A stretch of DNA of 27,867 nucleotides from a virus. Its lineage: Duplodnaviria > Heunggongvirae > Uroviricota > Caudoviricetes. A program made the translations under genes and the position numbers. The notes below the pieces were generated by a model. That model saw only the letters and a list, made by a program, of their open reading frames with translations, was not told the DNA's origin and ran no database searches. The stretch lies in IMG/VR virus record IMGVR_UViG_2526164662_000053; one strand, written 5' to 3'. This document shows positions 7,209 through 21,899 of the stretch, piece by piece (position 1 is the stretch's first letter; each line of letters opens with the position of its first letter).

Positions 7209-7523
7209 TTAGCATTTTTTTGACCGCGCGTTTCCGGACGTATTCTGTTCTCCTGTCCCTTTATATCGTCGGAATACCCGCCGCTCTTCAAATCCCATTC
7301 CCAACTCAGAATGTAGTCTGTTGACCGCTTGTTTTATTTCGGTCAGGTTCACCGGTGAAACCGGAGTCCGGCGCGCCTTACGCAAACACTCTGCTCGTTT
7401 CTGTGCCGCCACTTTTCTTTTCTGGTCATCACTTAGCTGTACCATCACTTTTGCCCATCGTTCAGCTGCTCTCCGGTACAGTCCTTTTTTCTCCAGACAT
7501 TCTGCCACGTGATCATGTAGCAT
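7209..7523 (-). CDS. PerC-family-like transcriptional regulator
   Basis: 104 aa; ATG at 7523 with GGAGG 7 nt upstream; LEKKGLYRRAAERWAKVM resembles the conserved PerC/Pch motif as recalled. Confidence 0.5.
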   Translation of the reverse strand: MLHDHVAECLEKKGLYRRAAERWAKVMVQLSDDQKRKVAAQKRAECLRKARRTPVSPVNLTEIKQAVNRLHSELGMGFEERRVFRRYKGTGEQNTSGNARSKKC

Positions 7524-10219: not shown

Positions 10220-10473
10220 CTGATGTATGTCTCCGTCACCGCCGACAGAAAATGAAAGTAAAGAAAAACAAAAAAACCGCCAGTGTCACCCACTGACGGC
10301 CAACTCCGGGAGCCGTGATTATGGCATTCAGGCTCTGCTAAAAATGCCAGATAACATTCCGGCCTCCCCTGATTCAGGTTATAAATGACACAATATCTTG
10401 ACAACACCCGTCACTGTCTGTCAGAAAATATACCGCCAGGCATAAGTATCATGTGAAATCCAACTATCCTTCT

Positions 10474-10512
10474 GAGCCAGCACCTCTCCACCGAAAGTCA
10501 GTGCTGGCTGTT
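10474..10512 (+). terminator. plus-strand intrinsic terminator, antisense to the late operon
   Basis: agccagcac…gtgctggct stem followed by TGTTTTTTT on the plus strand only. Confidence 0.45.
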
Positions 10513-10666
10513 TTTTTCCTTAATAAAGCATCTGTAACTGAAACAATCCGCATATTGATAATATATTGACAGGCATCATTGCTGTCTGTGAAAAATAAGT
10601 CTCTACAAACATATAAGGCCTTTTAGCCAGCGTCTTCTTTCAGGTCAGTCGCTGGCTCTTTTTTTA

Positions 10667-12517
10667 TTATGCTGCCGGTGCATTTATCTCCAGCACCAGA
10701 CTTTCTATCTCAACGCCATACGCTGCATTTTTTGTAACATCCGTCAGCGTCAGCGCATTCAGTCCCAGTGTCAGACTGTCTTTTATAACCTGGAATGCCG
10801 GGCCAGCCACTCCATTCAGTTTCGGAGTAACCGTGGCACTGCCGGCGGTGAACACCAGCTCCAGCGTCTGCCAGTCGTTACCGTAATCGCCGAACTCCCC
10901 CAGCTTCGTGTTTCCGGCTTTCCTGTGATGCATCAGATTCACTCTGCCGTCAGTGGTCTGAGTGAAGTACGACATCAGGAACGGATTACCGGTACCCGTC
11001 ATCGCCACACCATCAGGAACGGGAGCATCCGTATACAGATAAATCCCCAGCCCGAACTGATTGTTGGTCAGTGCGCCTGACAGGCGGAACTTACAGGTCA
11101 GTCTGCCGCCCTGTGTCAGCAGGGTAATTGCGTCATCCACCGGATGCGTCAGGGACCAGGTTTTATTGCTCTGCTTGGTGATCTTAAATACACCATCTGA
11201 CAACTGAATTCCGCCATCCTTAATGCTCCAGCCCTGCGCAGCAGCCTCTCCGGCTGCCGGCAGCAGGGAGATTGTGCGAACGGACGTATCTGCAGACGGA
11301 CCCGATGGCGTGTTGCCGCCGGGCGAGGGTTTGATTTCCGGTGCCTTACCACTGATGAAGGCTGAGGTGCGCCCGGCTGCGTTCAGAATAGCGGTTGCCA
11401 GACGATCCGGAATAATGCTCCTGCGCGCCCATGAACTGAAATGTGTCGGGCGGTTTGATGATACCTGGTTTCCATTCGTTCTCGATGCCGCACCGTAATA
11501 TCCTGATGCCGGAATATCCGGATCTTCTGCCGGCGCGTTAGTGGCGGTATTGACGCCGTTACCGTCTGTCATGAAGGGCACAAAATAAACGCCCTCACTC
11601 TCCCTGTTTTTATACCCGCCGTACACGGTGTCGTACTGGGTAGCGTATGTATTTTTCCAGTAATACGTCGTGTCACCACAAATCCACGGCACATTTACAG
11701 CACTGCCACCATGACACTGCGCGTTAAACACAGTGAGGTCAGCACGAAACTGCTTCAGCATGGCTGTAAACAGCGCAGGTTGCTGTGCGTAGGTGGCGGC
11801 GCTCATGTCAAACTCTCCCTGCATCCAGCACACCGCCAGCAACACATTTTTCGGGTTCTTCTGTAATGCAGCTTTAGTGCGCGCAATCAGGTCCTGATAT
11901 AACGGTTTACCCACACCCCAGCGTGCCGAATCCTGGCTGGCCCCCGTGTCCGCACTGAATGTCCCCTCCGCGCCCTGGGTGAATGCCGAACCACCACGAC
12001 AGCATGGTGCCAGCAGGATCCCCGCGTTATTCGGGATATACGGAAGCAGTTTTTTGGCAATATGTAAGCCCTGGCCGACACAGCCGTACTGCCCTTTGCT
12101 CAGGTCTGCCTTCGGATGATTCAGCGTACTCATATCCTGCACATCATGCAGGCAGTGGTCGGCCGGAATAATATCGTTATATCTGCAGGCAGCCCCACCC
12201 GGCGTCACTGTACTGCGGCGCGCCAGCTGTTTAATGCGCGGATCCGGAGCATCGTATGAATCCGGCAGCGGAAGCCCTTCACCGTAAGCCATGGCATTGG
12301 ACTGCCCGGCCAGTACGATGACGTAGTACCAATCCGGCTCAGTTGCACCACTGACCACCACATCACCTTCTGCTGTAATCGCCTGCATCAGAGTATAAGG
12401 GGTTATGGCCACCGGACTACCAAACGGCTGCCAGCCCTCTTTCAGTTTATGTGTCAGCTTTTCCGCAAGATCTGATGGCGACGCCGCCCTGACAACATCA
12501 TAGTGTTTAAATGCCAT
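10667..12517 (-). CDS. prophage sialate O-acetylesterase (NanS-p-like; SGNH/SASA domain)
   Basis: 616 aa from ATG at 12517; N-terminal MAFKHYDVVRAASPSDLAEKL…, esterase block VIVLAGQSNAMAYG; position between tRNAs and lysis genes as in Stx-type lambdoid phages. Confidence 0.8.
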   Translation of the reverse strand: MAFKHYDVVRAASPSDLAEKLTHKLKEGWQPFGSPVAITPYTLMQAITAEGDVVVSGATEPDWYYVIVLAGQSNAMAYGEGLPLPDSYDAPDPRIKQLARRSTVTPGGAACRYNDIIPADHCLHDVQDMSTLNHPKADLSKGQYGCVGQGLHIAKKLLPYIPNNAGILLAPCCRGGSAFTQGAEGTFSADTGASQDSARWGVGKPLYQDLIARTKAALQKNPKNVLLAVCWMQGEFDMSAATYAQQPALFTAMLKQFRADLTVFNAQCHGGSAVNVPWICGDTTYYWKNTYATQYDTVYGGYKNRESEGVYFVPFMTDGNGVNTATNAPAEDPDIPASGYYGAASRTNGNQVSSNRPTHFSSWARRSIIPDRLATAILNAAGRTSAFISGKAPEIKPSPGGNTPSGPSADTSVRTISLLPAAGEAAAQGWSIKDGGIQLSDGVFKITKQSNKTWSLTHPVDDAITLLTQGGRLTCKFRLSGALTNNQFGLGIYLYTDAPVPDGVAMTGTGNPFLMSYFTQTTDGRVNLMHHRKAGNTKLGEFGDYGNDWQTLELVFTAGSATVTPKLNGVAGPAFQVIKDSLTLGLNALTLTDVTKNAAYGVEIESLVLEINAPAA

Positions 12518-12776
12518 GGTTCTTTCCACCATCTGAAAAATAATTCTTTAAAATACCTGACATGTAATACAGAAAAAACACAAAACCATACCTTAAATAA
12601 AAACCTGATTATCAAGCAGATATGCATGGATAAACTACAAGACGAGATATAAACCACCCTGTATTTAAATAAACAATAAACAACATCAGAAAAATAATTC
12701 TGCTCTATGGTTTAATTCAAAAATATCATTTATACTTTTCAGAACATCACCAGCAAGGCATAAACAAGGAAAGTAA

Positions 12777-13112
12777 ATGAAGTGGATTGTGATTGATACA
12801 GTTATCCAGCCATCATGCGGAATATCTTTTTCAGTCATATGGAGTAAAATAAAATTAATAATCTGGTATCAATCGGATGCTTTCTTACCTCCTGAAAGTA
12901 TATTTACACTGACTCACACAGGTATCATGCTCAATAACAAAGTGCTACCTGTAACCATTTACAACATAGTACCATTCAATAAAACATTCTGGAATTTAAT
13001 CAAAAACAGCCAGGAATGCCCTACAAATACAGATAACGTATTGAATGAATGCTTTAATAACCGTTGCACTCTGCAAATATGTCCTTATGGGCTAAAACAA
13101 CAAAATCCATAA
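12777..13112 (+). CDS. hypothetical protein in AT-rich cargo region
   Basis: 111 aa ORF in strongly AT-rich DNA; no recognisable motif. Confidence 0.25.
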
Positions 13113-13559
13113 GGAGTTTACTCACATCTGACAAAATCAATATAAACAGCCCCTCCGGAGAGGGGCTGGAGAGTGGCGCTATGTGCCATTGCATGGTGCC
13201 GGGTGCCTCCCGGTGAATTCAGTACCAGCACCTGAATCCGCGATTATCCCATATACCTACTCGCTGATTGCCCCTCCGCACAGGGGGATTCACCATGCCA
13301 GTTTCTTTTAACAAACTCCCCGCAAACCAGACAACAGTCAACCGCCTGAATTGTGAAGTATTTAAAAATTTCTCCCGCTAACTGATACCCGGCTAACAGT
13401 CTGGCGTTTTCTTTTTCAGCAACGGGAAAGCAACAACCACCACACCCGCCACCAGCACACCGTCAGCCAGCACTGACATTATCCGGCTGCTGCAATGCCA
13501 TTCACAAAAACAGTAAGCAATCACTTTTTACCGTAACAGGTGATAATCCAGATATGTAT

Positions 13560-13913
13560 CTACCCCAGATGAGTAATCCGAAGTTCATCCATACCACAGG
13601 TCCTGGCTATTCTGTTGTACTCCTGAACAAGAGCAAATAATTCTGAATTAGCAACCATGAACTCATCGCAAACCCTCTGTATAGCATCACTATTCAGAAT
13701 AATAACGTCTCTTCCCGAAAGACGATCAGGAGTACAGAACAAAACTGTCAAACGGCTGAAGGCCTTTGCTCGTGCTGCATTGACTATATCAATACGCTGC
13801 CTAAGGATGAAACACCCCGACGCCTCATCAATATTCACTCTACCCACACCATATGAATGATAAATATTTAATGCTGAAAAAACCATTAGACCGTATAACA
13901 AATATTCAATCAA
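13560..13913 (-). CDS. hypothetical protein with hydrophobic N-terminus, at the stx-equivalent position
   Basis: 117 aa ORF directly downstream of the tRNA pair; no recognisable similarity. Confidence 0.3.
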   Translation of the reverse strand: MIEYLLYGLMVFSALNIYHSYGVGRVNIDEASGCFILRQRIDIVNAARAKAFSRLTVLFCTPDRLSGRDVIILNSDAIQRVCDEFMVANSELFALVQEYNRIARTCGMDELRITHLG

Positions 13914-14023
13914 TACTTAACAGAACTTTTATTTTTGACAAACATATAATATTTTCAACAATATCCTGAGCCAGGTATATTTCAGTATAAGGCTCTGCCG
14001 GAAGGAATCTGGAAGAATGAATA

Positions 14024-14100
14024 TGGCGCGCTGTACTGGATTCGAACCAGTGACCGATTGCTTAGAAGGCAATTGCTCTGTCCGGCTGAGCTAACAACGC
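14024..14100 (-). tRNA. tRNA-Arg (anticodon UCU)
   Basis: Reverse complement folds as cloverleaf: 7-bp acceptor stem GCGTTGT/ACAGCGC, anticodon loop CTTCTAA, T-arm GGTTCGAATCC, 3' CCA. Confidence 0.9.
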
Positions 14101-14201
14101 TGAATACCGATAATGGACCGCCATCGGGGACCCGCCCCCCGCACCAACAACCCTGTTATCGTGTCGTCTGCTCTTCCTGATAAGCTAATGGCGGTTTGTG
14201 A

Positions 14202-14277
14202 TGGTGGCCCTTGCTGGATTTGAACCAGCGACCTGGCGATTATGAGTCGCTCGCTCTCACCACTGAGCTAAAGGGCC
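14202..14277 (-). tRNA. tRNA with CAU anticodon, ileX/ileZ-like (tRNA-Ile2; reads as Met by anticodon)
   Basis: Perfect 7-bp acceptor stem GGCCCTT/AAGGGCC, anticodon loop CTCATAA, T-arm GGTTCAAATCC, CCA end; close to recalled E. coli ileX. Confidence 0.9.
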
Positions 14278-14312
14278 GGGAGCAGAATAATAACGGTCCG
14301 TAATTAATTTCG

Positions 14313-14340
14313 CAATAAAAAACCCGCTCAGCGGCGGGTT
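14313..14340 (-). terminator. intrinsic terminator downstream of Q (tR'-like)
   Basis: Stem aacccgc/gcgggtt with 6-nt loop followed by TTTTTTATT on the minus strand, about 80 bp after the Q stop. Confidence 0.5.
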
Positions 14341-14387: not shown

Positions 14388-14415
14388 AATTTACCACAGA
14401 TTCCGGAAAAATCAA
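14388..14415 (-). promoter_or_regulatory. candidate late promoter (pR'-like) just after Q
   Basis: Minus strand TTGATT-N16-TAAATT between the Q stop and the terminator; weak match, placed by analogy to lambda. Confidence 0.35.
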
Positions 14416-17109: not shown

Positions 17110-18449
17110 CATAAGCGCTAACTTAAGGGTTGAACCATCTGAAGAATGCGACGCCTCGGTGCCTCGTTAAGACGATGCCTCGCGTTCTTCAATTGCGTTT
17201 TGTAGGCTGTCAGGGATACTGTCCCACGAATGGCCACCTGTAAGCTCCAGATGACCATTTTTGTTATTCTCCACAACGAGTTAGTTCTTCTTTTCGGATC
17301 CGGCACTTCTGGGGGGGAAATCCAGCGATGGCTGGATTATGTCGTCAATTAAAAATGCGGCGAGTAGATTAGCAAATATCCACGCTTTCGCGAGTTCAGG
17401 TTCCTTTGCACGCAAAGCATCCAGGTGCAGCAAACTTTTGAGCCGCTTAAAAGCCAGTTCAATTTGCCATCGCAGACGGTAACAATCAGCCACTTGCTCT
17501 GCTGAATATTCATCTTCCGGTAATGATGTTAGCAATAGCACATGGCCCGCTGCTTCCAGCGTTTCCGCCTGAACTACTCGTCCTTTTCGACGATTCTCGC
17601 TGAGCAGTCGGGTTTTACTGATTAATGCTTTTTCGGGAGGAAGTGATACGGCAATGAGACGTGCCGGAAAGGGAGCTCCGGTCTTTTTTATTACCTGAAT
17701 TGCCTATCATTACAGTGGTTTCACCGTTCTTACCGCAATCCAGCCCGCGCAGAAAACCCATCATGTCAAAGCGCATTCCTTCTGCAGTTAACCAGCGCAA
17801 TCCTCGCCAGTGAACCCGGACGATATAATCAGCTTCTCCAAAAGCAAGTGAGCGGATACATTCGGGACGCGAACCGAATCCCCGGTCAGCAATGCGTATC
17901 TCGTCTGCCGTTTGCGCAAATCGGTCCAGCCGTTCAGCGTCTCTGCTGTCGGTTAGCTCAAAATCAGTGAACTGACAGGTATGAGGATCATATCCCATAT
18001 GTAGTCGCCATTCAGCGCTGCCGCCCCCGGGCGCACTGATTGCTGTTCCATCGACAAGACGCAATCTCTTTCCGCTTGTACAACCCGTAACTGCGGCGCG
18101 TACAGCAAGTGTTTGTGCGGCAAGTATGCCAAACCAGTCGGCGGCATTCCGCAGCCGCTTCAGGAGAGCCACGTCAGATAATGTTGCAACGTCATGGAGC
18201 TGAGCCCATGCAGTGACTTCACGTAATGACATCCCCCCGGGGCCGTAAGCCAGCCCCAGACGTAGCAGAGTTGCAGCATCACGAATTTCGCGGCGGCGGG
18301 TTAGAGCCCCGGCATTACGTGCCGAAGTATCCAGTTCTTCGGGCTTACCAATATGGGCCAGAATTGCTGACCAGTTATCGTGAGAGTAATTCATCGGCAC
18401 GTTAAATCATATCAGGCGTAATACCACAACCCTTAAGTTAGCGCTTATG
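17110..18449 (-). mobile_element. IS186 copy 1 (IS4 family)
   Basis: Perfect 23-bp terminal inverted repeats CATAAGCGCTAACTTAAGGGTTG; transposase recognised as IS186 InsL; 1340 bp, flanked by GGGATTCTCCC and GGGATTGCTCCCC. Confidence 0.9.
17281..18400 (-). pseudogene. insL: IS186 transposase, split by one frameshift
   Basis: ORFs 17615..18400 and 17281..17541 together cover the transposase; copy 1 reads ccggtctttttta where copy 2 reads ccggctttttta. Confidence 0.8.
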
Positions 18450-18471
18450 GGGATTGCTCCCCGCACAACGG

Positions 18472-18624
18472 CTACTTCTTCGGTTCGTAAGCGAGAACAG
18501 CCTTAAACTCAATATTACGTTCCTTTACGGTGAACTCACACAGCGAGTCTCCGACCAGAAGCGTAAATCCCAGTACCGTCAAACACAGCACTATTACTGC
18601 CACAAGGGCATATTTCGTCAGCAT
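18472..18624 (-). CDS. hokE: Hok/Gef-family type I toxin, HokE-like
   Basis: 50 aa [50 protein letters not shown], matching recalled HokE; IS186 end lies 22 bp past the stop. Confidence 0.8.
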
Positions 18625-18769
18625 GTTTATATTGCCTCCATGCGAAGAAGGGACTACCATCCGAGTTGTTGAGGCTCGGAGTGGCAGCCCCAGGATTGAT
18701 AGAAATATCTCCTGGGGCTTCATCTTTCCAGACCTCAGAGTTAACCTGAAACCGGAAAGCTTCAGGCAC
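18536..18769 (-). CDS. candidate mok-like overlapping reading frame for hokE
   Basis: 77-codon ORF in a different frame that starts upstream of hok and stops inside it, as in hok/mok/sok loci; no sequence recognition. Confidence 0.35.
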
Positions 18770-18963
18770 CCGCCGTTATCTTACCCTTCCTCAACAAAAT
18801 ATCTGTTTATTTATACAGTGAATCCTGTTTCGGACTTCTGTCGGCAAAACTCATCATTGCTCTTAAAACGAAATCGCCCGCAGCCATCACTGACCGCGGG
18901 CGAAAGTGTAAAGCAGGTGCCTTACCATCCTGACCTGACAACCGGATATGCGGGGATTGCTCC

Positions 18964-20301
18964 CATAAGCGCTAACTTAAGGGTTGAACCATCTGAAGAA
19001 TGCGACGCCTCGGTGCCTCGTTAAGACGATGCCTCGCGTTCTTCAATTGCGTTTTGTAGGCTGTCAGGGATACTGTCCCACGAATGGCCACCTGTAAGCT
19101 CCAGATGACCATTTTTGTTATTCTCCACAACGAGTTAGTTCTTCTTTTCGGATCCGGCACTTCTGGGGGGGAAATCCAGCGATGGCTGGATTATGTCGTC
19201 AATTAAAAATGCGGCGAGTAGATTAGCAAATATCCACGCTTTCGCGAGTTCAGGTTCCTTTGCACGCAAAGCATCCAGGTGCAGCAAACTTTTGAGCCGC
19301 TTAAAAGCCAGTTCAATTTGCCATCGCAGACGGTAACAATCAGCCACTTGCTCTGCTGAATATTCATCTTCCGGTAATGATGTTAGCAATAGCACATGGC
19401 CCGCTGCTTCCAGCGTTTCCGCCTGAACTACTCGTCCTTTTCGACGATTCTCGCTGAGCAGTCGGGTTTTACTGATTAATGCTTTTTCGGGAGGAAGTGA
19501 TACGGCAATGAGACGTGCCGGAAAGGGAGCTCCGGCTTTTTTATTACCTGAATTGCCTATCATTACAGTGGTTTCACCGTTCTTACCGCAATCCAGCCCG
19601 CGCAGAAAACCCATCATGTCAAAGCGCATTCCTTCTGCAGTTAACCAGCGCAATCCTCGCCAGTGAACCCGGACGATATAATCAGCTTCTCCAAAAGCAA
19701 GTGAGCGGATACATTCGGGACGCGAACCGAATCCCCGGTCAGCAATGCGTATCCCGTCTGCCGTTTGCGCAAATCGGTCCAGCCGTTCAGCGTCTCTGCT
19801 GTCGGTTAGCTCAAAATCAGTGAACTGACAGGTATGAGGATCATATCCCATATGTAGTCGCCATTCAGCGCTGCCGCCCCCGGGCGCACTGATTGCTGTT
19901 CCATCGACAAGACGCAATCTCTTTCCGCTTGTACAACCCGTAACTGCGGCGCGTACAGCAAGTGTTTGTGCGGCAAGTATGCCAAACCAGTCGGCGGCAT
20001 TCCGCAGCCGCTTCAGGAGAGCCACGTCAGATAATGTTGCAACGTCATGGAGCTGAGCCCATGCAGTGACTTCACGTAATGACATCCCCCGGGGCCGTAA
20101 GCCAGCCCCAGACGTAGCAGAGTTGCAGCATCACGAATTTCGCGGCGGCGGGTTAGAGCCCCGGCATTACGTGCCGAAGTATCCAGTTCTTCGGGCTTAC
20201 CAATATGGGCCAGAATTGCTGACCAGTTATCGTGAGAGTAATTCATCGGCACGTTAAATCATATCAGGCGTAATACCACAACCCTTAAGTTAGCGCTTAT
20301 G
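18964..20301 (-). mobile_element. IS186 copy 2 (IS4 family)
   Basis: Same 23-bp inverted repeats; 1338 bp; flanked by GGGGATTGCTCC and GGGATTCTCCCCC; same orientation as copy 1. Confidence 0.9.
19135..20252 (-). pseudogene. insL: IS186 transposase, split by one frameshift near the N-terminus
   Basis: ORFs 20013..20252 and 19135..20085; C5 run at 20086-20090 where copy 1 has C6; plus one substitution (ADGIRIA versus ADEIRIA). Confidence 0.8.
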
Positions 20302-20324
20302 GGGATTCTCCCCCGCCTGGTCTC

Positions 20325-20480
20325 TTACTCCTCAGGTTCGTAAGCTGTGAAGACAGCGACCTCCGTCTGGCCGGTTCGGATTCGTACCTCGCAGAGGTCT
20401 TTCCTCGTTACCAGTGCCGTCACTATGACGGTTAAACAGATGACGATCAGGGCGATTAACATCGCCTTTTGCTGCTTCAT
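20325..20480 (-). CDS. hokD: Hok/Gef-family type I toxin, HokD(RelF)-like
   Basis: 51 aa MKQQKAMLIALIVICLTVIVTALVTRKDLCEVRIRTGQTEVAVFTAYEPEE; AAGGAG 9 nt upstream; IS186 end 23 bp past the stop; HokD versus HokC call is from memory. Confidence 0.8.
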   Translation of the reverse strand: MKQQKAMLIALIVICLTVIVTALVTRKDLCEVRIRTGQTEVAVFTAYEPEE

Positions 20481-21147
20481 AGCCTGCTTCTCCTTGCCTT
20501 TCGGCACGTAAGAGGCTAACCTAGATTTGCCGTTCATAGATTGAGCCTCAGATTAATGTTAAGCGTCTTGCAGGACGCGTAATGTTAACTGGGGCTTTTC
20601 TCTATCTGCCTTTGGTGTTCATGCCTGAGACAGATAGCCTCAAGCACCCGCAGCCATTCTACTTAACTCCCGTTACCTCGCCAATATGAAATCAGTCAGA
20701 AAGGCGATCCATAAGAACAACAGCAAGGCAATAAATTGCCATTACAGCAGCAATAGCCAGCGCACATTTGAGAACCAGCACCACAACCTCCTGTATTGGA
20801 CGTACACCAGTCCTGATAAATATGAGGCTGTCTCGTCAGTGATTCAATACAACTATTGGGTATAGTTTCTGTGATTTTGTTCTGTAGAAATGGAACATAA
20901 TAACCTGTCACCACCAGCACTTCTTTAAATACGCCAAGTCCGACGCAAGCTAACCTTCTAGCCCGCTTTGAGCGAAGAACGGACTGAGTAATTCAGGCCG
21001 TTAGCGACACTATGACATCATTAGCAACCAACTAGGAGTTGGTAATAGATGAGTTAATTAATTGATTAAAAACCGACGATTTTACTAGATTACGGGAAGA
21101 AGAAAGGCCGCTGGTACGGCCTCCCAGAGACTAGTCTATTGTTATGC

Positions 21148-21345
21148 TTAGAAACGCTTTTCTATCTCTTTTTCTCTTTCGTTTATTGCATCGTCAATGA
21201 TTTTTTTTGCTGAATTAATTTGTGGTGTTTTTTCTGGTAATACATCTTCAAGATCTTTGGCAATTTTCTTTAATTTATCGATTTCTTTAGTTAAATCAGT
21301 TACAGATTTATCCGCTATTGACTTTGTCATTTTTCCATATTCCAT
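21148..21345 (-). CDS. hypothetical small charged coiled-coil-like protein
   Basis: 65 aa ORF in AT-rich DNA; terminator-like hairpin aggccg…cggcct with U-rich tail just downstream on the minus strand. Confidence 0.35.
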   Translation of the reverse strand: MEYGKMTKSIADKSVTDLTKEIDKLKKIAKDLEDVLPEKTPQINSAKKIIDDAINEREKEIEKRF

Positions 21346-21539
21346 TCAATTTATTTATCAATCAGTTACCCGTAAACCTTATCATGGATTCCAATTATCG
21401 ACAGCTGGGATTTTTACTTTCTTGATCTGCCCCAGGCGAATGACATATCCCCATTAACCAATGTCCGCTCCTAGCACTTAGTAGACATTAATAGATTGTA
21501 AGCGTTCCCGTCATGTAGCGGTCACCGATTGGTGATGAA

Positions 21540-21899
21540 TTGAAGCGGATCATTGATGAAAGTCGCAATAACGTGGCCAGCCCATTTATCGTTCACCAGA
21601 TCCCGGAACGGCAGGTTAAACGCAGCAAAGAAGTTTCTCATCCCACTCAAGTTGCACCAGACTATTTGAGTCGGTCGTTTTCAGCTACGCGTGACAAGCT
21701 GGGTTTATATGACAAACGGCCGATGGATGAAAGGCCAACCTTTCACGAAATTCGCGCCTTAGCAGCACATCTTTTTGATCAGCAGGGCATCGATCCACAA
21801 GGACGAATGGCACACAGCGATGCGAAATCAACTAAAATCTACACGCAAAACCATATCGACTGGGTTGTAGTTCCACATGGAGAAATTAAAGCCAGCTAG
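21540..21899 (+). pseudogene. tyrosine integrase, C-terminal fragment only
   Basis: ERPTFHEIRALAAHL…MAHSDAKSTKIYTQ matches the recalled lambda Int C-terminal catalytic region (R, H, Y present); N-terminal two-thirds absent; frame opens with TTG. Confidence 0.7.

Follow-up and report, generated by a model that had tools for sequence, protein, structure and literature searches.

The DNA analysed here (the window, 27,867 nucleotides) represents a lambdoid prophage and is identical to positions 1232877-1260743 of the genome of E. coli strain 2013C-4991 (NZ_CP027355.1). The late genes of the window are on the minus strand, where the order is Q, a tR'-like terminator, tRNA-Ile(CAU), tRNA-Arg(UCU), a slot, a NanS-p esterase gene and a holin gene. 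The features identified in and around the slot are as follows (window coordinates):

15242-14421, minus strand: late antiterminator Q, 273 aa (Pfam PF03589, E 6.3e-55; PGAP "antitermination protein")
14388-14415, minus strand: putative late promoter PR', from reading of the sequence (TTGATT, 16 nt, TAAATT)
14340-14321, minus strand: tR'-like intrinsic terminator 3' of Q (7-bp GC-rich stem, then TTTTATT)
14277-14202, minus strand: tRNA gene with CAU anticodon, ileZ type (ARAGORN; Rfam tRNA, 72.5 bits)
14100-14024, minus strand: tRNA-Arg(UCU) gene, argO type (ARAGORN, Rfam and PGAP)
14023-12533: slot between the tRNA-Arg gene and the esterase gene, 1,491 bases
13357-14010, minus strand: exchangeable cargo cassette proper (blastn against L018, an O157:H7 Stx2c prophage)
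13958-13931: promoter-like site, possible low-level source of transcripts for the 92-aa gene and DUF3927 (promoter scan)
13838-13560, minus strand: conserved 92-aa gene with GTG start, PHROG 2873, of unknown function (conservation and profile match)
13524-13393, minus strand: DUF3927 small hydrophobic protein, 43 aa as annotated (PF13064, 95.6 bits vs 25, E 1.7e-27)
13327-13138, minus strand: STnc100-family small RNA (Rfam RF02076)
13168-13147, minus strand: intrinsic terminator of STnc100 (terminator scan)
12777-13112, plus strand: iraL, RssB anti-adaptor of the IraM family, 111 aa (109 of 111 residues as in CFT073 IraL)
12744, plus strand: iraL transcription start (matches the published CFT073 5'-RACE start)
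12731-12736, plus strand: -10 element of the iraL promoter, TATACT (7 nt upstream of the transcription start)
12532-10667, minus strand: NanS-p-type sialate O-acetylesterase with SASA, DUF1737 and DUF6645 domains (Pfam)
10219-10013, minus strand: class II holin, first gene of the lysis cassette (ORF list and PGAP)

The putative PR' is absent from the list generated by the promoter scan because it matches 8 of 12 consensus positions, which is under the scan threshold. The tRNA(CAU) gene was called Met(cat) by ARAGORN vs tRNA-Ile by PGAP; in the PGAP annotation the esterase appears as "SASA family carbohydrate esterase" with its start at 12517, and lysozyme and Rz come after the holin. G and C make up 28-35% of positions 12500-13100 and 33-42% of positions 13600-14000, rising to 50-53% at 13100-13400. 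With respect to a locus of the Stx-phage type, Q and tR', the tRNA genes, and NanS-p together with the lysis cassette are all present, while for stxA and stxB neither a Stx-like ORF nor a Pfam match was found in the slot. A preliminary description of this DNA, made from the sequence alone, had proposed the arrangement Q, tR', tRNAs, cargo, NanS-p and lysis, with two hypothetical ORFs in AT-rich DNA and a GC-rich structured stretch around 13140-13330, and had noted that neither ORF resembles the Stx subunits; each of these features, the composition profile and the lack of resemblance to Stx were recovered in the present analysis.

The largest ORF in the slot (12777-13112, plus strand) is antisense to late transcription, converges on the STnc100 terminator and corresponds to iraL. 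It is annotated as an IraM-family anti-adapter in RefSeq, scores 161.8 bits against the NCBIfam IraM model PRK09919 (cut-off 121), matches IraM in the PDB (8TWD) with E 7e-32, and differs from IraL of CFT073 by two conservative changes, I64V and N110S. This 98% identity to the CFT073 protein suggests that the window IraL binds RssB and stabilises RpoS. In CFT073, iraL has its own sigma-70-type promoter, which is active in log phase, and loss of the gene halves the log-phase RpoS half-life; moreover, IraL raises both the level and the half-life of RpoS in exponential phase in CFT073 and in Shigella sonnei (Hryckowian et al. 2014, PMC4045071). With respect to the partner region on RssB, IraL binds the N-terminal domain only while IraM binds both domains. 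The first 29 nt of the CFT073 iraL 5'-RACE sequence match the window exactly and only once, with the start at 12744 on the plus strand, and since TATACT is positioned 7 nt upstream of this start, iraL appears to have its own promoter, opposite to the late operon. Judged from the sequence, iraL is not a Q-controlled late gene, and the Q-dependent late control that had been proposed for everything in the slot does not extend to it. Over the region from -100 to +33 there are five differences compared to CFT073, i.e. a 1-bp deletion near -30, one base each at -1 and -82, and two bases in the spacer from the Shine-Dalgarno sequence to the ATG, and because of these the promoter strength or the translation of iraL may differ here. 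Sequences of the iraL type with at least 95% identity are present in about 1,400 genomes.

The GC-rich structured stretch represents an STnc100-family small RNA, which matches RF02076 with 132.4 bits (threshold 47; E 3e-29) over model positions 1-206 of 206. Its predicted fold (-69.5 kcal/mol) is better than that of 200 out of 200 shuffled sequences (z = -2.96), and the consensus structure has 34 pairs, four of which show compensatory changes in a small sample of seq­uences (seven). Homologues were found in 285 phage records, mostly those of Stx2a-, Stx2c- and Stx1-converting phages, where the homology begins about 45 nt past the stop codon of stxB and lies ahead of the esterase gene. Members of this family have been studied elsewhere: EcOnc27/sRNA103 is an Hfq-binding STnc100-family RNA at the 3' end of stxAB, with Northern evidence, and frequently has AsxR or AgvB as a convergent anti-sRNA partner; EDL933 has 11 STnc100-family copies, all 11 of which are transcribed without induction and one of which was confirmed by Northern blot; and copies have been reported in outer membrane vesicles. 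As family copies are transcribed in uninduced EHEC cultures, Q-dependent control is too narrow also for this RNA. Upstream of the sRNA the sequence TTGAC(T/A) is conserved, and no acceptable -10 element of a sigma-70 promoter was found 16-18 nt downstream of it; the sRNA may be processed out of a longer transcript. AsxR and AgvB (RF02703 and RF02702) gave no match in the window, either at the gathering threshold or at E <= 1, in a search that did detect AsxR in the positive control, L015. Predicted pairing of the sRNA with the start regions of iraL, DUF3927, the 92-aa gene, nanS-p and the holin gene was in no case better than in shuffled controls. PGAP places a pseudo-CDS over STnc100. The region has a mosaic make-up, and recombination breakpoints fall at the sRNA or within it.

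The minus-strand ORF originally delimited as 13560-13913 contains a real gene but is about 25 codons too long, and the start of that gene is the GTG at 13838. Three diverged lineages were compared, i.e. the window together with CFT073 and E2348/69, the loci L009 and L010, and the locus L011. Over its 276 nt the gene has no indels in any of the three; dS is 0.9-1.1 and dN/dS 0.26-0.29, and on these sequence comparisons purifying selection acts on the 92-aa gene. A start at the TTG of 13913, which would give 117 aa, was rejected, as the 5' extension is frameshifted in L010 (L009 and L010 differ by a 4-nt indel just upstream of the GTG). In L011 the corresponding GTG is preceded by a strong AGGAG and the PGAP annotation has the 92-aa form, vs only a weak Shine-Dalgarno sequence, GGG, ahead of GTG 13838 in the window. 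The gene was assigned to 13838-13560 because of the indel-free conservation, the frameshift upstream of it in L010, the annotation in L011 and the starts of homologous proteins: among the matches listed, the full-length homologues are 91-95 aa long and start at the point that corresponds to GTG 13838.

Residues 1-92 of the predicted protein align with positions 17-108 of the phrog_2873 profile (E 5.6e-58). The family is small, with only 22 relatives recovered when 1.84 billion representative proteins were searched exhaustively; none of the proteins matched in these searches has a functional name, and the protein had no match in Pfam, NCBIfam or PADLOC. The AlphaFold2 model is a two-helix hairpin (pLDDT 84.9), for which fold searches returned generic coiled-coil matches only. 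A lead to GapR/UPF0335 was rejected, since the PDB profile match was non-significant (E 0.056) and the fold searches gave no support. No signal peptide or hydrophobic N-terminus is present in the conserved 92-aa core; the extension from the TTG is hydrophobic and is not conserved as coding sequence. The gene is always downstream of Q, and its immediate upstream neighbour in L009 and L010 is the gene of a YdeO/GadX-like AraC regulator. In RefSeq no feature covers it in any of 36 sampled complete genomes (at least 98% identity; the variant is held by 1,183 genomes), and it is also unannotated in CFT073 and E2348/69. There is thus an annotation gap in RefSeq, i.e. a gene under purifying selection for which the sampled carriers have no feature.

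A third small gene in the slot, DUF3927 (13524-13393), had been overlooked in the preliminary description. Its product matches phrog_1470, corresponds to the PGAP protein WP_000562553.1 and contains a single, strongly hydrophobic segment. Which codon serves as its start is uncertain; in E2348/69 a 28-aa version is annotated from an internal ATG. In prophage PP2 of E2348/69, a DUF3927 gene is positioned immediately ahead of PasD2, and because the same adjacency is seen in the window and in PP2, the DUF3927 gene and an STnc100/PasD RNA form a recurring pair.

PasD1 and PasD2 of the EPEC strain E2348/69 have been described (Pearl Mizrahi 2021; Zhu, Shabalina and Storz 2026), and a common origin of STnc100 and PasD has been proposed. 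Their 5' part (GCATGGTGAATCC..., CGGGAGGC) is common to the window sRNA and their context is also similar, with a DUF3927 gene upstream and an esterase gene downstream. However, the 3' half of PasD, which includes the seed UGUGAG and the terminator, differs from that of the window sRNA and the two 3' halves do not align; furthermore, the PasD2 locus is below the STnc100 threshold, whereas the window copy scores 132 bits. The PasD probe, CATGCGCAGCCAGAACTCACAAGG, had no match in the window with up to three mismatches allowed. The identification of the window sRNA as PasD was consequently rejected; with the PasD probe and 3' half absent, it is a separate STnc100 copy.

Comparison with L018, in which the order is Q, three tRNAs, stx2cAB, an opposite-strand IraM-family gene and the esterase gene, delimits the exchanged part of the slot. 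By blastn, window positions 14011-14315 (the tRNA region) align to L018 with 84% identity and positions 11384-13356 with 69% identity, where the latter cover the 5' part of the esterase gene, the iraM-family gene, the sRNA and approximately 30 nt upstream of it, while 13357-14010 gave no alignment to L018. Since the flanks align and the interior does not, positions 13357-14010, with the 92-aa gene and DUF3927, replace stx2cAB. The proposed analogy to the Stx locus is therefore correct and can be drawn more sharply than it had been, with 13357-14010 as the cassette at the stx2cAB position of L018.

Nine complete E. coli genomes contain all 1,491 bases of the slot with 100% identity. Among the 5,426 complete E. 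coli genomes compared, coverage of the slot reaches at least 80% in 863, and 2,861 have parts of it. Carriers include isolates from wastewater, pig, dog and river water, and the same module is found in the sequenced phages mEp460_ev081 and vB_EcoS-640R1.

Taken together, iraL, STnc100, the 92-aa protein and DUF3927 very probably make up a composite module for lysogenic conversion, one that other E. coli prophages (the potB prophage of CFT073 and PP5 of E2348/69) are already known to carry. The module is regulatory and fitness cargo, not toxin. To call the cargo uncharacterised, as was done before, is wrong for its main parts, as the plus-strand ORF is the characterised IraL and the structured stretch the known STnc100. 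Anything in the slot had earlier been suggested to be a candidate virulence or fitness factor. Neither the 92-aa gene nor DUF3927 has any toxin-like feature. Because the cargo consists of components already described (IraL and STnc100) and two small proteins of unknown function, the slot is largely ordinary: the locus is approximately 99% identical to one published in 2014 and the sRNA family is in Rfam. What is added here is minor, i.e. the unannotated 92-aa gene, the exact equivalence of the cassette with stx2cAB, and the position of iraL, which is that of AsxR.

We infer from relatives that iraL, the sRNA and both small proteins are expressed in this strain. In the lysogen, and as judged from CFT073, iraL, which is encoded opposite to the late operon, would be transcribed from a sigma-70-type promoter of its own, and IraL would bind the adaptor RssB, such that RpoS is protected from ClpXP in exponential growth and the general stress response is raised. 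Here RpoS is expected to escape ClpXP because IraL sequesters RssB, as shown for close relatives. The sRNA would, like its relatives, be made without induction and act via Hfq. It marks the 3' boundary of the exchangeable cassette, both in Stx1 and Stx2 phages and in this prophage. Q-dependent expression is a reasonable assumption for the 92-aa gene and DUF3927, and of the slot contents it is reasonable for these two only: their position suggests late transcription once Q passes the polymerase through tR' and the sRNA terminator, and low-level transcription might also originate from the promoter-like site at 13958-13931. More speculatively, late read-through past the sRNA terminator would yield RNA antisense to iraL, which could thereby be silenced when the prophage is induced. 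As IraL raises RpoS during growth, the carrier strain is likely more stress-tolerant than its core genome suggests, which is relevant to how pathogenic E. coli survives in food and in the host.

An extended version of this would have iraL and STnc100 as a convergent regulatory pair and, in addition, the 92-aa protein as a host-directed factor of the late operon that is interchangeable with stxAB. The iraL mRNA in the lysogen would then end at, or run antisense into, the sRNA, and after induction Q-mediated read-through would generate antisense RNA across iraL and turn RpoS stabilisation off at lytic growth; we regard this combination as rather unlikely. That the slot instead holds a novel virulence or toxin-like factor, expressed like stxAB only under Q-dependent late control, is highly improbable. 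The 92-aa gene and DUF3927 are indeed co-oriented with the late operon, downstream of Q, PR' and tR' and in the exact stx2cAB position, and no function is assigned to either product, but the conserved 92-aa core is devoid of a signal peptide or hydrophobic N-terminus, and its predicted fold is a plain helical hairpin with generic coiled-coil matches. Moreover, the largest ORF in the slot is IraL, on the opposite strand and with its own promoter, and the module is present in hundreds of genomes, including those of the wastewater, pig, dog and river-water isolates.

Two other explanations concern the integrity of the region and the relation between DUF3927 and the sRNA. The prophage has a frameshifted IS421 transposase gene and a recombinase pseudogene, the region has a mosaic structure with breakpoints at the sRNA or within it, and PGAP has nothing over the 92-aa gene and a pseudo-CDS over the sRNA, all of which would be expected if the ORFs and the structured stretch were non-functional recombination leftovers in a decaying prophage. 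Set against this, the 92-aa gene is under purifying selection (dN/dS 0.26-0.29), iraL is intact with promoter and start site, the STnc100 match is full length with an intact terminator, the downstream lysis, terminase and head genes are intact, and the module is also carried by mEp460_ev081 and vB_EcoS-640R1; degenerate remnant DNA with unconserved ORFs, an outcome that the preliminary description had allowed for, is accordingly most improbable. Likewise, we give very little credence to DUF3927 and the adjacent sRNA being a type I toxin-antitoxin-like pair in which the peptide mRNA is controlled by the neighbouring RNA. The peptide does have one strongly hydrophobic segment, and its gene is directly ahead of STnc100/PasD in at least two prophage backbones (that of the window, CFT073 and PP5, and that of PP2 with PasD2). 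However, complementarity of the sRNA to the DUF3927 translation start region is at the level of shuffled sequences (z = -0.02), the two genes are co-directional and not antisense, Stx phages have the same sRNA after stxB without a DUF3927 gene, and the Rfam and PADLOC toxin-antitoxin models gave no match.

The module as a regulatory and fitness cargo has its closest known counterpart in the iraL locus of the CFT073 potB prophage, where the DNA is approximately 99% identical from the tRNA-Arg gene to the esterase start and the gene order is the same, i.e. the unannotated 92-aa gene, DUF3927 (the identical WP_000562553.1), STnc100 and iraL. CFT073 differs in that it has an IS200C insertion after Q and in that its esterase gene is a truncated DUF1737 pseudogene, whereas the window esterase is intact. 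The gene order in prophage PP5 of E2348/69 is also as in the window. IraM of E. coli K-12, which is encoded next to e14 (PDB 8TWD), is 63% identical to IraL over 107 residues with the cysteine-rich C-terminal part conserved; both are RssB anti-adaptors of one protein family, yet the genomic context of K-12 iraM differs from that of the window iraL, and no STnc100 remnant was found beside K-12 iraM. IraM responds to Mg2+ starvation via PhoP, and IraL acts in log phase.

In Stx2 phages and the Stx2c prophage the order is, as in the window, Q, tR', ileZ/arg tRNAs, cargo, STnc100, NanS-p and lysis, and in both the Stx2 phages and the window an STnc100-family sRNA follows about 45-75 nt after the cargo. 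The Stx2c prophage further resembles the window in having an opposite-strand IraM-family gene between the sRNA and the esterase gene, and iraL in the window occupies the sRNA-convergent position that AsxR has in Stx2 phage II. The differences are that the window cargo consists of the 92-aa gene and DUF3927 whereas that of Stx2 phages is stxAB, that the window Q is of another type than Q of the Stx2 phages, and that the window has two tRNA genes whereas phage 2851 and CFT073 have three. Together, these comparisons describe the Stx slot as a defined exchange cassette, bounded by the tRNA-Arg gene and the conserved sRNA, between which cargos are swapped, and they place an IraM-family gene beside the toxin in at least one Stx2c prophage.

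The slot between tRNA-Arg(UCU) and the NanS-p esterase gene encodes the small RNA STnc100 (13327-13138, minus strand) and iraL, the gene of an RssB anti-adaptor (12777-13112, plus strand). PGAP also places a pseudogene here:

13183-13308, plus strand, PGAP pseudogene, "incomplete hypothetical protein"

Over its whole length this call lies antisense to the STnc100 RNA, and it is most likely an annotation artefact. With respect to iraL, its homologue in prophage PP5 of the EPEC strain E2348/69 (E2348C_1245) is represented in published RIL-seq data by 11 Hfq chimeras in which its mRNA is joined to Spot 42, a core small RNA. This hints at post-transcriptional control of iraL.

In a diverged version of the slot, represented by the homologous sequences L009 and L010, the 92-aa gene encoding the predicted helical hairpin protein is preceded, with a gap of 21 nt, by a regulator gene:

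L009 164-889 and L010 2756-3481, YdeO/GadX-like AraC regulator, 241 aa, phrog_1450

In these two sequences the AraC-type prophage regulator and the hairpin protein may constitute one operon.

The following tRNA spacer, regulator gene and early-region features were also recorded:

14101-14201, 101-nt spacer between the tRNA-Arg(UCU) and tRNA(CAU) genes
7209-7523, minus strand, annotated PerC-family transcriptional regulator gene, downstream of the lysis cassette
17118-17306 and 18972-19160, minus strand, two ORFs with identical 62-aa translations
18471-18626, annotated hokD
18616-18771, minus strand, hok/sok-type locus (Rfam sok model, 86.5 bits)
20475-20649, minus strand, hok/sok-type locus (Rfam sok model, 110 bits)
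20187-21627, minus strand, overlapping SMODS nucleotidyltransferase and SLATT-domain genes (PGAP annotation)

Neither ARAGORN nor Rfam predicted a tRNA within the spacer. At the equivalent position, a second tRNA-Arg gene is present in both CFT073 and phage 2851, and an older annotation of E2348/69 also records a tRNA there. The spacer may be a degenerate argN remnant. The identical 62-aa ORFs are spaced 1,854 bp apart and enclose a frameshifted IS421 transposase gene (17281-18392) together with hokD, suggesting a direct repeat or a duplication tied to IS insertion. Judging from the PGAP annotation, the SMODS and SLATT genes, which map to the prophage's early region, represent a putative CBASS-like anti-phage defence pair.

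Finally, similarity to PasA of E2348/69 identified a further small RNA gene:

10444-10517, extending to 10668, plus strand, PasA-type small RNA (EcOnc51/52 family)

The identity to E2348/69 PasA is 92% across 74 of 85 nt, and 95% for the long form (236 nt in E2348/69). The gene is positioned between the esterase and holin genes and is oriented antisense to the late operon. The esterase gene is flanked by the PasA-type RNA and STnc100, the same arrangement as described for prophage PP2 of E2348/69.
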